Shown: piece by piece, positions 8,993-19,669 of the stretch
Layout: each line of letters begins with the position of its first letter
Position numbering within the stretch: the first letter of the stretch is position 1
NCBI GenBank assembly: GCA_017654855.1
Contig: CM030333.1
Span: 62,001 to 126,000 of the forward strand
Direction: 5' to 3'
From: Podospora anserina
Taxonomy: Eukaryota
Length of the DNA stretch: 64,000 nucleotides
Translations under genes and position numbers: made by a program
Notes under the pieces: model-generated
Seen by the model: only the letters and a program-made list of their open reading frames with translations
What the model was told of the DNA's origin: nothing
Databases searched by the model: none

Positions 8993-9920
8993 GATGGTGT
9001 TGAAACTGATAGTTGAAAGTGTCGATGACAGTCAATACATCAACATTCAGAATGCGGTGACCCCCTTTTATCTGTTTTGGTAACAGTGAACCGTAAGAAA
9101 CAGGGTTGTCGTGATATGTTTGGGGCTTGATATGCCGGTACTCACCATGGAGCCTGCCAACCGCAATGCTGGGCTGAGTATCTACCGCAGAGATAAGCAA
9201 CGGAATCATGAGAGAGTATTGGTGGCATTTTCCTTTCCGTGCCTCCGGTTATAGGGGAGTATAGTCGAGCACAGATGCTTCCACCTATCGTGACAGAGCA
9301 TTCCTGCTGCTTGATTCTTGGAAATACATTAGGCTGACCTTGAAGGCAATATACTCCATGCAACCCTTCATAACAGAGCTCACAATGAAAACGAGTTTCA
9401 GCAGTTGATAGGTAATCACCAAATTTCTGTAAACTAGTGGCAAGGTGTGCTTTCTCGAATCTACGTTATGAATGAACTCCTCCGAGTTCGTCGCTAACTA
9501 CCTACACATTTCTGCTTCAGGCTGGAAAGTATGTAGGTATTCAACAATACGGTATTTTTAACAAGCTCTGATTGTGATCCACACATAGAAGAAGGCACAA
9601 ACATTATCCCCATAAGACCAACAGCCTATATATCTATGAAAGTCCGAACGGGGTGTTGGGAGGCGTGGTCTACCTTGCTTCGAAACCCCCTATCCAAATG
9701 ACATTACAGGTACGATTTTATTGAAATTATATTTTTCCCACCCATCCTTCGTGTTTTCTTTCTACAGAGTACCTATCCACCACTCTTTCCATTTCCTTGA
9801 TTTCCTTCAAGTTGTCATCCCATATGCAATAACTGTCGACTTACACATTTCTACCTAAATAGGAAATAAGCCTCCTAACTATCTTTCGAGAGATAGTAAG
9901 TACCTTTCGAGGCCCGTTAA

Positions 9921-10202
9921 TGTTACCAAGCTGAAGTGCCAATAGGTCAAGGCCAGTACTGTATTCCAGTAGCTAATGTAATCGTAAGATAAAGAAGAAA
10001 AAAGGAAAGGAAGGTTTGTGTGTGGCCCGTCTTGCTCTCCCAAGATATCCTTGCCCTGCCCTGCCTGGCCTGTGCCTTCCTCCTGCTCTTCTCCCATTGG
10101 CCACAGCCTCCCTGCTCTCCTATTGGTCGCAGCCTTCTTCCTGCTCCCTCTGCTCCCTGCACCCCTAACCCTGTCCCGTGCTCTCTGCCGTATGCCGTCA
10201 CG
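9921..10202 (-). mobile_element. Solo LTR (282 bp) of an LTR retrotransposon with 5-bp TSD GTTAA
   Basis: GTTAA at 9916-9920 and 10203-10207. On the minus strand the element reads CGTGAC...GTAACA (canonical TG...CA with one terminal change). Strongly purine-skewed half followed by a pyrimidine/AT-rich half; composition differs from the flanks. Confidence 0.75.
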
Positions 10203-16361: not shown

Positions 16362-17334
16362 TCAAGTATCTGCCCTCCGCCAGCTGCTTTTCTGCATGTA
16401 ATCTCTTCCACCGCCGTGTACCTCTCTCGCCTTGTGGCCAATCTGGCTACCTCCTCCAGATGACTGGCTTTGGCCGTGCTGGTTAGGGCCTCTCCCATCT
16501 CGAGCTATGGAGAGACGAACGACCACTCCATTCATTGCCGTGCCGCTCAGCTCCTTGACAGCACGGTCAACTTCCTCGCGGGAGCCAAGGTCAACATAAC
16601 AGTGATGGTGGTTCCCAGGCGTAGATCGGAGCGAGTATGGAACCACGCGCTTGCCGATGGCGACGCTAAAACGTGCGGTGTCAATCCATCTGGACATGTT
16701 TGAAGATGACATGCTTGGGAGCATGGACTTACACGTCGAAGCCCGAAAAAAAGCTGCGAATCTCAGCGTCGTTGTGTTCCTGGTCAATCATTTTGTCGAG
16801 GCCATCGATGCGGATGCGGGTGTTATCCTTGTTAGAGTAACTTTACAGACGATTCAGGGCAGCATACGGCCCTTGCTAGTCTTCTATTTGCTCTCTTAGG
16901 GAATTCCAACCCCGAAATCTCGCCCCATCCTTCTGTTCTGAGGCGCCGTCGGCACCTTTCCAATCACCCCATCTCTGGAACACAGGTCAAAATTCAGCGG
17001 AGCTCTGGTCTCCACGCGATGATCTCCCAGGCCCCTTGGGTACACAGGGGCCCAGCTTGACGACCCTCCCGAGGATTGACTGGCCCGCAAGCGCCTCCAA
17101 AGCGTAGGCAGCCTCTTGGTGTGATGGAAAGTCGACGAAACAGTACCCTGGGTTTCGACCACTGATAGGATCGATCGAAATATGGATTTTCTGAAAGCTG
17201 TTGAGGTTGACCCTGACGAGCAATTCCTCCACATCTGTCGGTTTGGCAAAATAGTCCAAACTACCAACATAAATCCGATTGAAGTCAGTCGGGACGGCAG
17301 TGTTCAGCTCTTGATCATCGTGACGCCTCGCCAT
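16362..17334 (-). pseudogene. Two-RRM RNA-binding protein gene with three in-frame premature stops in the linker (pseudogene, recoded, or cryptically spliced)
   Basis: RRM1 RIYVGSL...NPGYCFVDF. TGA 16989-16987, TAG 16878-16876, TAA 16845-16843, all in frame. RRM2 spans intron 16732-16666 (GLDKMIDQEHND...VVAIGKRV...HCYVDL). Ends SSWRRADT*. No frameshifts. Confidence 0.7.
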
Positions 17335-17773
17335 CTTCGAGTTGGTGGCTATCGTATAGCTGATAAGAGTATTTGTCGAGTACTGTCTATGCGCAAGAGC
17401 AAGAAGATTTTGCTGCTGAAGGTGGCGCAAAAGCCCTCCCACAATTTTAGGCTAAACCGCACGTCAGAGTGGGTCAACAATGCATTGGCGGGCAAGCTTG
17501 AATTTGTACCTTAGGGAAGAACGTCCAAGAGAGACAGACAGTCAAAGTGAACCAATGCGAGACAAGGCCTTGATGTTTGTTCTGAGTATGAAGTTCAATC
17601 ACATGTCACAGCAGATCACTGTCACACTGACGGCGCCGAACACAGCTTGTCATCACATGGAAAGCTCTGCGCCTTCTCTGTTGTTGGGCATACTGTTGTG
17701 TGTCCACGCTGCTGCCAGCTTTTTGTCAAGGTAGAGGCTGTATTCGAATCCTATAGTTACTCATACTAGCTGC

Positions 17774-18958
17774 CTAGACCGTCAAACTGGTCTCCTCATC
17801 AATAACGATGCCAAACTGTTTCACCGCAGTTGAATAACTCTCACGAACCGCTTCGCTGGCATAGATCCTCATCTCCTTTTCGTAACGCTCTGTGACCCCT
17901 GCCTTGTATCCGCCATCTTCACGCAAGAGACGACCAAGTAGTGCAGAGTCTCTTACAGCAGTGTTGGCGCCGATGCCACCAGCTGGAGTCATGGAATGAA
18001 CAGAGTCACCAATGACGGTGACGCGTGGTTGGTTTGGCCAGTCAGGAACACCTGAGGGTGTTGAACAGGTGATCTTCCAAAATGCGGCCTCAGACTCGTT
18101 CATGTCTTCGAATAGCGGTCTAAAGCGAGGGTGCCACTTCTGTGTCAGAGATCTGGCGATGTCTGCTGCCGTCCTGCCCACGATGGTGTAGTCATCATTT
18201 GGAGCCCGAATTACGCCGGGGTGACCACCCATGGTCCAGCCGAAAGAGACGCTTGGATCATCCATCTCTTCAGGGCGGACGTTCGTAATGACGAAAACAG
18301 ACCCTTCTGGGCGTGTATCGTCCAGCAACCGAAAGACTCCCTCGCCGAGGCCTTTGAAGGATGCGCTCGGCGCCTGCCCGTGAGTCCCCCTCGCGCCCGT
18401 GTCATAGACCTTCAGCTTTCCTTCTGAAAGTTGCTTGGCAACCTTGGAGTAAATCCCTTCTCCGCCAACCAACAAGGGGCCTTCGACAGACCTAGTCCCA
18501 TCCGCAAAGATGGCTTGTACCCCGTCTTCAGTGACTTCATAGCCCGTCACATGCTTGCCCCACTCAATGTTGTCCTCACAACCTTGGGCAAATATTCTTC
18601 GCATGTCCCCCCTGGAAATCCCAATCGTTTTGCCTCCTCCCTGTCGCGATACTAGCGCCGGTGGGACCAAGTGATGCTCGATCTGCTCTCCGGTCACGGC
18701 GTTAAACGATGCAAATCCGAGTCCGCCCGTCTTGCCACAGGTGCCCCAGAATCGCTGCCAAGTCTCGGGATCCAAGACGGCCTGGATGGCATCCAAGCCT
18801 TCAGAAGATAAGCGAAGCCGGTAACCCTGAGCACGAAAAACAAATGAAGCATCTCGTTCAAAGACCCTGTAGGGAATACCGGAGAGCCTCAGCGACTGTG
18901 CTAATAAGAGGGAAGCGATGCCCGCACCAGCGATAAGGATGGGTTTTCTGTCGGTCAT
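17774..18958 (-). CDS. FAD-dependent monooxygenase
   Basis: ILIAGAGIAS, FRAQGYRL, VGGEGIYS, VTVIGDSVHSMTPAGGIGANTAVRD. Confidence 0.92.
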   Translation of the reverse strand: MTDRKPILIAGAGIASLLLAQSLRLSGIPYRVFERDASFVFRAQGYRLRLSSEGLDAIQAVLDPETWQRFWGTCGKTGGLGFASFNAVTGEQIEHHLVPPALVSRQGGGKTIGISRGDMRRIFAQGCEDNIEWGKHVTGYEVTEDGVQAIFADGTRSVEGPLLVGGEGIYSKVAKQLSEGKLKVYDTGARGTHGQAPSASFKGLGEGVFRLLDDTRPEGSVFVITNVRPEEMDDPSVSFGWTMGGHPGVIRAPNDDYTIVGRTAADIARSLTQKWHPRFRPLFEDMNESEAAFWKITCSTPSGVPDWPNQPRVTVIGDSVHSMTPAGGIGANTAVRDSALLGRLLREDGGYKAGVTERYEKEMRIYASEAVRESYSTAVKQFGIVIDEETSLTV

Positions 18959-19669
18959 TGTTGGTGGTGCACCTTTGTTTCAAGGATGCAGGTACCTATG
19001 GAAGAGAGCCGATATTCGAGAGTCTGGAAGCAGGCATGCTCTTGTAGATCAAATCACGCCCTGAGCATTTGTTGGAGTCGTCTACATGTCGGTGAGCCCC
19101 TCTACTTGCTGCATGCCATTATTAATGTGTTAATAAATTCAGGCATGGGCTGACAAATCGCGGCAATCGCGTAATGACCATTGCTGGTACACGATAAGCC
19201 TGAGATCGGACGAATGTAACTTCTTGTGGCTTTTGCACTTGACTTCTTCGACACATTATGAAAATAAAGGAATATAGAATAAGATTGAATAGCAATAACA
19301 CCAAAACATACTTCAATCCTAGCCTGGCAGAATACTCTTTTCCACCGAATTGCAGTGGCTGGTCCGTGTTCATAACCCTCATGGATTTATCTTCCAAGTC
19401 AAGGTATCAGATTAAAAGCCACCAAAGAGAAAAGAGACTGGACCGGGTATCCACTTACACCCGACGTCCTGGCGCTTTCCCTCTTTCAACCACACGGCAG
19501 AACTTTTGACCGACGGCATTTGCAAGGGCTTTGTGGTGGGATTAGTTCGGGGCTCACAAGAAGCTTCGTCATCTTTATCAACAGAACTCGCCCGGCCACA
19601 TTCCATCGTTTTGTCAATTCGCTCACACCATACTCGCAACCACCAAACTGCACGTAACGATAACTCACC

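Follow-up and report, generated by a model that had tools for sequence, protein, structure and literature searches.

Structure of the locus

The window analyzed here, a stretch of 64,000 nucleotides of Podospora anserina DNA, contains a minus-strand frame (17334..16362) of 301 codons plus a terminal TGA, with one 67-nt intron (Table 1). Apart from TGA, TAG, and TAA at codons 116, 153, and 164, this frame is uninterrupted. Translation of the minus strand confirmed the original prediction that three in-frame stops lie between two RRMs, within a span of 147 nt. The frame is also free of indels, as had been claimed: a tblastn search with P0001, the closest ortholog, returned two gapless blocks (194 amino acids at 91.8% identity and 100 amino acids at 95%). 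The intron proved to be a normal one, its 67-nt GTAAGT...TTTTAG joint being present in RNA contigs.

Table 1. Coordinates of the two-RRM gene, its lesions, and its upstream neighbor (window positions)
Feature	Positions	Strand	Description	Basis
Exon 1	16733..17334	-	602 nt; ATG at 17334; RRM1, conserved linker carrying all three stops, and the initial strand and helix of RRM2	Gapless tblastn match to P0001 residues 3-196; RNA contig cover up to 17377
RRM1	17056..17274	-	Codons 21-93	Pfam RRM_1, E = 1e-10, residues 21-93 of the 115-aa N-terminal ORF
Premature stop 1	16987..16989	-	TGA, codon 116; ancestral residue Arg (CGA by one transition)	
Premature stop 2	16876..16878	-	TAG, codon 153; ancestral residue Gln (CAG)	
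Premature stop 3	16843..16845	-	TAA, codon 164; ancestral residue Gln (CAA)	
Intron	16666..16732	-	67 nt, phase 2, GTAAGT...TTGAC...TTTTAG	RNA-contig joint 16665>16733 (CT..AC on the + strand); site coincides with the break in the P0001 tblastn alignment
Exon 2	16362..16665	-	304 nt; rest of RRM2, Gly/Ser/Gln-rich tail, conserved ...M..SSWRR end, terminal TGA 16364-16362	Gapless 95% match to P0001 residues 197-296
RRM2	16506..16818	-	Codons 173-254, interrupted by the intron	Alignment to P0002
T7 run	16746..16752	-	Codons Phe-Phe-Ser of RRM2; T8 in some RNA contigs	
FAD monooxygenase	17777-18958	-	Upstream neighbor	

The two predicted RRMs were recovered by different routes. RRM1 was recognized by Pfam in the window sequence itself; the exon-2 half of the gene, taken alone, remained below the RRM_1 threshold (Pfam, E = 0.31). 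RRM2 was established through the orthologs P0002 and P0020, each of which has two RRM_1 stretches in Pfam, and through the AlphaFold model of P0002 (35-sequence alignment), which folds into two beta-alpha-beta-beta-alpha-beta domains with 10-residue-block mean pLDDT values of 75 to 96. In this model the strands and helices of the second domain occupy residues 175-256 (10-residue-block mean pLDDT of 83 to 96), a low-confidence linker separates the domains, and a disordered tail follows at the end. Both RRMs of the window allele are still intact in the reading frame.

Conservation and synteny

Searching with the exon 1 translation, with X at the stops, we retrieved 166 relatives among 244 candidates. 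The best match was P0001 of Podospora pseudoanserina (296 aa, gapless, 92 to 95% identity), followed by Triangularia verruculosa (70%), Cercophora samala, many Sordariales and Hypocreales, and a few Penicillium sequences. Judged by these matches, the gene is the ortholog of a putative two-RRM RNA-binding protein that is conserved across Sordariomycetes. The family has motifs of its own, namely, P.FQRWGDW and QGPY in the linker, PGNHHH/YC in RRM2, and a ...M..SWRR C terminus. Across 35 orthologs, linker residues R121, W122, and G123 never vary, and conservation is at least 90% at D124, W125, and the G-P of QGPY, which directly follows stop 2. Since the linker holds the invariant RWG and the nearly invariant GP residues, we conclude that it is coding sequence which is translated in the family, not an intron. 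Our searches returned no function for this RRM family.

The gene resides in a conserved neighborhood. In Cercophora samala, the orthologs of the RRM gene and of the upstream FAD monooxygenase carry the adjacent locus tags 356879 and 356880, and in Triangularia verruculosa both orthologs are listed with a longest contig of 70,479 bp, which suggests that they share a contig there as well. A tblastn search with P0001 revealed no second copy of the RRM gene within the 64-kb window. Because the FAD monooxygenase neighbor is kept beside the orthologs, the window gene is a syntenic ortholog rather than a stray duplicate. The sequence clusters comprise 6 members for the RRM gene and 7 for the FAD monooxygenase. 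These counts would fit an open frame in every other species of the seven-species complex, but this is only a guess; the apparent absence of the stops from the other species rests on one named ortholog, P0001.

The stops in public DNA and RNA runs

The stretch was present in 20 of 24 listed public runs, all 24 of which are labeled as one organism. Among these were 14 DNA-like runs from four studies, which contained 1.00 of 125 sampled words. Eight of the 14 (two studies) are possible sources of the assembly and were left out, which leaves six runs from two studies as independent support. Given that the DNA-like runs contain 1.00 of the sampled words, the stops do not reflect a sequencing or assembly error. 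Nor are they private to one strain, as the original prediction had specified for a plain pseudogene: all runs of the organism that contain the stretch carry them.

For RNA, we examined X15, X17, X18, and X19, which come from four different studies and make up four of the six putative RNA runs. The RNA label was guessed, none of these runs being recorded as RNA; the evidence consists of Logan contigs, which drop minority variants, from samples with no stated developmental stage. Contigs of X15, X18, and X19 (three of the four runs) contained a joint, 16665>16733, that skips 67 nt and reads GT..AG on the gene strand. These contigs thus derive from spliced RNA, and the intron is thereby confirmed. 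X17 showed no joint; its contig ends at the exon edge, 16665, and positions 16701-16782 have no cover. In all four runs, contigs covered the three stops as well as positions 17043 and 16828 with zero differing letters, at the resolution of contigs from which minority variants are dropped. The longest view was provided by a 933-nt contig of X15, which spans 16379-17377 and from which only the 67-nt intron has been removed; no other splice joint was reported in the contigs of the four RNA runs. Transcription thus runs from about 40 nt ahead of the ATG, splicing is correct, and the stops are kept in the assembled mRNA.

The check proposed with the original prediction was to look in RNA for A>G at the stops or for a junction between 17043 and 16828. 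Neither appeared in the assembled contigs of the four studies, and A>G was seen at no stop in any of the four runs, within contigs that drop minority variants and come from samples of unstated stage. Low-level or stage-specific editing or splicing may have escaped contigs of this kind, but we give stage-specific rescue by either route a probability of only a few percent.

The RNA contigs also revealed a further variant. Contigs of X15 (depth 8.5) and X18 (depth 7.22) carry an extra A behind 16745 on the + strand, which extends the T7 run to T8 and shifts the frame within RRM2. T7 is kept in X19, and X17 has no cover here, so that T8 occurs in two of the three RNA runs covering the site. Otherwise, the T8 contigs match the window perfectly, the three stops included. 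Most simply, T8 would be a later frameshift that segregates in some of the material, which is what one expects of a dead gene; a polymorphism between strains or an origin at the RNA or assembly level is conceivable too.

Ancestral state and origin of the stops

In the closest ortholog, P0001, the three stop columns read Arg, Gln, and Gln, the residues that, according to the original prediction, would point to a plain pseudogene; Triangularia verruculosa has Glu, Gln, and Gln. The stop 1 column holds R in P0001, P0005, P0007, and P0008, E, K, and N in P0002, P0006, and P0013, respectively, and a gap in P0004, making Arg the commonest residue (four of the seven orthologs with a residue there). 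Q was found at stop 2 in P0001, P0002, P0006, and P0008 and at stop 3 in P0001 and P0002. All eight aligned orthologs have sense residues at the stop columns except for gaps in P0004 and P0006. Since the closest ortholog reads R, Q, Q, each stop is one C>T step away from CGA, CAG, or CAA; for stop 1, an AGA>TGA transversion is an alternative.

The window and P0001 proteins differ at 22 amino acids, each of which requires one nucleotide change. Eighteen of these changes are transitions, and in 13 of the 18 the window has A/T where the ortholog needs G/C. Outgroups assign about 10 changes to each of the two lineages, and 8 of the 10 on the window lineage are G:C>A:T transitions (3 in CpA, 2 in CpG, 2 in CpC, and 1 in CpT context). 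In protein-level relative-rate tests with four outgroups, the window and Podospora pseudoanserina lineages had 7 versus 5, 3 versus 7, 1 versus 7, and 4 versus 4 changes. Relaxed constraint is therefore not demonstrated, and the stops may simply be very recent. Indeed, inactivation looks recent, because indels are lacking and replacements on the window lineage show no excess over those on the intact sister lineage. P0001 is itself altered at family-invariant positions (P62R, G205D, and R207C), and from such sequence changes the gene may be weakly constrained in the whole complex.

The original prediction regarded the confinement of the stops to the linker as a sign that random decay was not at work, as decay would not be expected to spare both domains. 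We counted the ancestral codons that a single C>T or G>A change turns into a stop (CGA, CAG, CAA, and TGG): RRM1 had 6, the linker 10, and RRM2 plus the tail 9. The chance that all three stops fall into the linker is C(10,3)/C(25,3) = 0.052, in a test that is post hoc. The stops are thus hardly clustered beyond chance, and the clustering is not compelling for a pattern noticed afterwards. RRM1, moreover, has also been hit by replacements, with A33T, G41R, and A42V being specific to the window. S171N precedes the first strand of RRM2 by two codons, and the C-terminal tail carries D277G. The expectation of spared domains therefore lost its force.

Also proposed had been a local burst of C-to-T changes. 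Its C>T component stood, given R, Q, and Q in the closest ortholog; whether the changes arose in one event has to be weighed separately, as a rival account of their origin. In that account, a single local, strand-coordinated C>T burst, due to light RIP after a transient duplication or to clustered cytosine deamination, produced the stops in place of independent mutations. All four window-derived changes in the 147-nt stretch (R116*, P146L, Q153*, and Q164*) are indeed C>T on the coding strand, three of the four are CpA>TpA, and the same G:C>A:T direction is taken by 8 of the 10 window-derived changes overall. However, three of these four changes were chosen because they are stops, and stops arise in this way only from C. 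The contexts of the eight G:C>A:T changes are mixed, in a comparison that leaves synonymous changes outside. As for RIP, the gene (GC, 0.538; TA/AT, 0.49; (CA+TG)/(AC+GT), 1.33) does not depart from the window mean (0.527, 0.59, and 1.32, respectively) in the manner of a RIP signature, i.e., an AT shift, a high TpA/ApT, a low (CpA+TpG)/(ApC+GpT) ratio, and a duplicated partner; the search for a duplicate covered the 64-kb window and found none, and the locus is the syntenic ortholog. We therefore consider one coordinated burst unlikely. It would be compatible with a pseudogene in any case. A mildly AT-rich stretch (GC, 0.38 to 0.43) lies elsewhere in the window, at about 9250 to 10000.

A probable young pseudogene that is still transcribed

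We propose, with a probability of roughly 0.8, that a conserved two-RRM gene has here become a unitary pseudogene, young and still transcribed, through three C>T nonsense mutations. A young pseudogene was among the models first put forward, and it was supported by R, Q, and Q in the closest ortholog and by RNA contigs with neither editing nor linker splicing, two of the three outcomes that had been named in advance as refuting the more exotic models. The three nonsense codons lie in a syntenic ortholog that aligns gaplessly and has no parent copy within the 64-kb window, as is characteristic of a unitary pseudogene. The spliced contigs keep the lesions, with the three stops present in all four RNA runs, as is characteristic of a transcribed one.

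According to this model, CGA>TGA, CAG>TAG, and CAA>TAA, all C>T on the coding strand, would have disabled the gene. Its promoter and its one real intron still work, and the locus is transcribed and correctly spliced. Translation would end at codon 116, and any product would be a 115-aa fragment containing only RRM1. The codon 116 stop precedes the exon-exon junction by about 254 nt, which makes the mRNA a likely NMD target; in the available text of PMC9801653, the authors state that they expect EJC-dependent NMD to function in P. anserina. The inactivation would be a recent event, and some of the material seems to carry an additional frameshift (T7>T8 in RRM2).

The main rival to this pseudogene model is a functional truncation, in which the first stop yields a 115-aa RRM1-only protein that is made and used, and only the part downstream of codon 116 decays. 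Such a protein would be consistent with the intact start codon and RRM1, with its significant RRM_1 match, with continued transcription and splicing of the gene, and with the position of the further lesions (TAG, TAA, and the T8 variant), all of which are downstream of the first stop. Against this scenario, the window-lineage replacements upstream of stop 1 are no rarer than those downstream: A33T, G41R, A42V, and H102P fall into the 115 upstream codons, compared to three replacements in the 185 downstream codons when the two further stops are excluded. A stop about 254 nt before an exon junction is, in addition, the classic NMD configuration. We thus regard a functional RRM1-only protein as quite unlikely.

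If the pseudogene reading is correct, the locus calls for annotation as a transcribed pseudogene, or else as a truncated allele of this conserved two-RRM gene, and does not belong among candidates for RNA editing or hidden splicing. Its value lies mainly in the negative result and in the annotation, but such a pseudogene could also be used as a neutral marker or as a natural knockout for an uncharacterized RRM family.

Proposed RNA editing and conditional rescue

In the editing model of the original prediction, sexual-stage A-to-I mRNA editing would turn the stops into Trp codons and thereby convert a one-RRM product into a two-RRM product in perithecia. The host belongs to the Sordariales, and such editing has been reported for Sordaria and Neurospora, in the available text of the sources. 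The TAG has the preferred UAG triplet (PMC4817773), and an ancestral Gln is no bar by itself, as corrected TAGs are reported to stem often from non-TGG codons (PMC10776026). That the developmental stage of the RNA samples is not stated also leaves some room for this model.

The reported rules of fungal editing nevertheless fit the three stops poorly. A-to-I editing in fungi strongly prefers U at position -1, premature-stop correction takes the form of UAG>UGG, and about 62% of edited sites are in hairpin loops (PMC11156358, PMC10776026, and PMC4817773, in their available text). UAA is edited to UGA, which is still a stop and accounts for 175 of 180 stop-retaining events (PMC4817773; also PMC11156358), and TAA accordingly serves as an uneditable control allele (PMC10776026). 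Even among UAG or UAA triplets, only about 9% are edited, at a median level a little above 16% (PMC4817773). At this locus, only one of the three stops is UAG, and the A of the TGA is in a GAC triplet, which is among those rarely edited (PMC4817773). Full rescue would need four edits, two of them for the TAA alone, and correcting the TAG by itself would be of no use, since a stop would remain on either side of it (the TGA upstream, the TAA downstream). The 51-nt folds around the stops had energies of -9.0, -8.1, and -2.5 kcal/mol, with z-scores of +1.17, +0.20, and +1.61 relative to shuffled sequences, and in none of the three folds did a hairpin loop hold a stop A.

The RNA contigs of all four runs, from which minority variants are dropped, lacked A>G, and the stops are absent from P0001, unlike conserved stop-correction sites. 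With a single stop of the editable kind, no hairpin, no A>G in contigs, and no stops in the closest relative, restorative editing is very improbable. Part of the argument for it had been that RRM2 reads RIRIDGL and would need editing to VGGLG; this is unnecessary, since the P0001, P0002, and P0004 genomes read RIRIDGL as well. Our literature search found no catalogue of A-to-I editing sites for Podospora, and the one Podospora preprint that touches on the subject mentions, in its available text, only ADAT gene expression.

A combined scenario appears just as improbable. The gene would be conditionally rescued by perithecial editing of the UAG, with the UGA and UAA bypassed by noncanonical editing, readthrough, or a stage-specific linker splice. 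The readthrough contexts are UGA-C, UAG-CAA, and UAA-A, and three successive readthroughs would be negligible. If conditional rescue were true, a one-RRM fragment, or nothing, would be made vegetatively and the two-RRM protein only in sexual development, and rescue through a linker splice would be reminiscent of the Cercophora samala gene model, from which precisely the stop-bearing stretches are missing. More generally, the locus suggests a filter for editing candidates in Sordariomycetes, in which stop type (UAG only), neighboring bases, and the state of the orthologs are considered before A-to-I rescue is invoked.

Proposed splicing across the linker

The other way of bypassing the stops would be to splice out the linker or parts of it, as an exitron or a new intron, either through the predicted 216-nt intron between 17043 and 16828 or through two shorter in-frame introns like the gaps of Cercophora samala. 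An in-frame GT..AG pair does exist at 17043/16828, a TTGAC...CAG element at 16991-16975 resembles the 3' end of the real intron, and two stretches of 23 aa and 28 aa, precisely those in which the three stop positions fall, are missing from the Cercophora samala model P0004 (251 aa). These gaps may be deletions, predicted introns, or bypassed lesions.

The RNA contigs speak against such splicing. Those of all four runs cross both 17043 and 16828, and the sole joint is that of the 67-nt intron. As a 5' site, GTACCC bears little resemblance to the GTAAGT of the real intron, and no GT is present where the second Cercophora samala-type gap would start. Enumerating introns was uninformative by itself: 706 GT/GC..AG candidates would excise one or more of the stops, and an open frame results from 1914 pairs. 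Because 45 single in-frame pairs among the 706 candidates remove all three stops, the existence of such a pair is expected by chance. The stretch to be removed is conserved as protein, including the family-invariant RWG and the nearly invariant GP. With no junction over the stops in the RNA contigs, the 216-nt intron was not upheld, and intronization is hardly credible at all.

Comparison with known systems

The genes whose stops are corrected by A-to-I editing in Fusarium graminearum and Neurospora crassa, i.e., PUK1 and about 70 others (PMC4817773, PMC10776026, and PMC11156358, in their available text), resemble the window gene in several respects. Like them, it is a transcribed Sordariomycete gene which is conserved in relatives and has in-frame stops without an indel, one of them UAG. 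In PUK1-type genes, however, the stops are reported to be UAGs located in hairpin loops; they become UGG through editing in perithecia and are frequently shared between species. In the window gene, two of the three stops (TGA in GAC, and TAA) are of kinds reported not to be editable to sense codons, no hairpin was found, the RNA contigs show no A>G, and the stops are absent from the closest species.

Among RRM proteins of known structure, phmmer searches with P0001 matched the PDB sequences of Nam8 (E = 5e-11, residues 15-201) and of nucleolin, PUF60, and Pub1 (E = 1e-13 to 1e-8). The likeness to Nam8, Pub1/TIA-1, and PUF60 is generic RRM similarity only; the conserved linker, RRM2, and C-terminal motifs belong to the family of the window gene.

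A further parallel is with unitary transcribed pseudogenes. Pseudogenes have been annotated in the P. anserina genome (PMC9801653, in its available text). The window gene shares with unitary transcribed pseudogenes a single-copy syntenic ortholog with nonsense mutations, an active promoter, correct splicing, and a further frameshift variant. A "gene graveyard" has reportedly been described for P. comata. Nothing essential sets the window gene apart from unitary transcribed pseudogenes except that it is very young, with both domains in frame, no indels, and no measurable acceleration.

RNA contigs across the RRM gene

In the contigs assembled from X15 and X18, sequencing runs from two studies, the T7 run at 16746-16752 (minus strand) of the two-RRM gene with three in-frame stops is replaced by T8, which is a frameshift within RRM2. 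Contigs of a third run, X19, carry T7, as does the window. The additional T could stem from a strain polymorphism, from an effect at the RNA level or from assembly.

The run X17 yielded a single contig (1965 nt, depth 145) that begins at 17079, within RRM1, and extends beyond 17450. Reckoned from its length, this contig would reach to about 19043 and would span the neighboring FAD-monooxygenase gene. Under some condition, transcription of this neighbor may continue into the RRM gene. That one contig covers both genes does not in itself prove a single transcript.

Location of the gene neighboring the RRM gene
Feature	Coordinates	Strand	Relation to the RRM gene
FAD-monooxygenase gene	17774-18979	minus (same as RRM gene)	upstream neighbor

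Base composition and orthologs

The stretch 9250-10000 of the window is mildly AT-rich (GC 0.38-0.43), and the bin 9001-10000, with a TA/AT ratio of 0.95, is the most RIP-like of the window's 1-kb bins.

The annotated Cercophora samala ortholog (P0004, 251 aa) lacks two stretches, of 23 aa and 28 aa, which lie opposite codons 98-120 and 138-165 of the window gene when the two are aligned. All three stop positions of the window's RRM gene fall exactly inside these missing stretches in the alignment, which in C. samala may represent deletions, predicted introns or bypassed lesions. The intact Podospora pseudoanserina ortholog (P0001) carries the lineage-specific changes P62R, G205D and R207C at sites otherwise invariant across the eight orthologs compared; judged from these substitutions, there are hints that the RRM gene is weakly constrained throughout the species complex.
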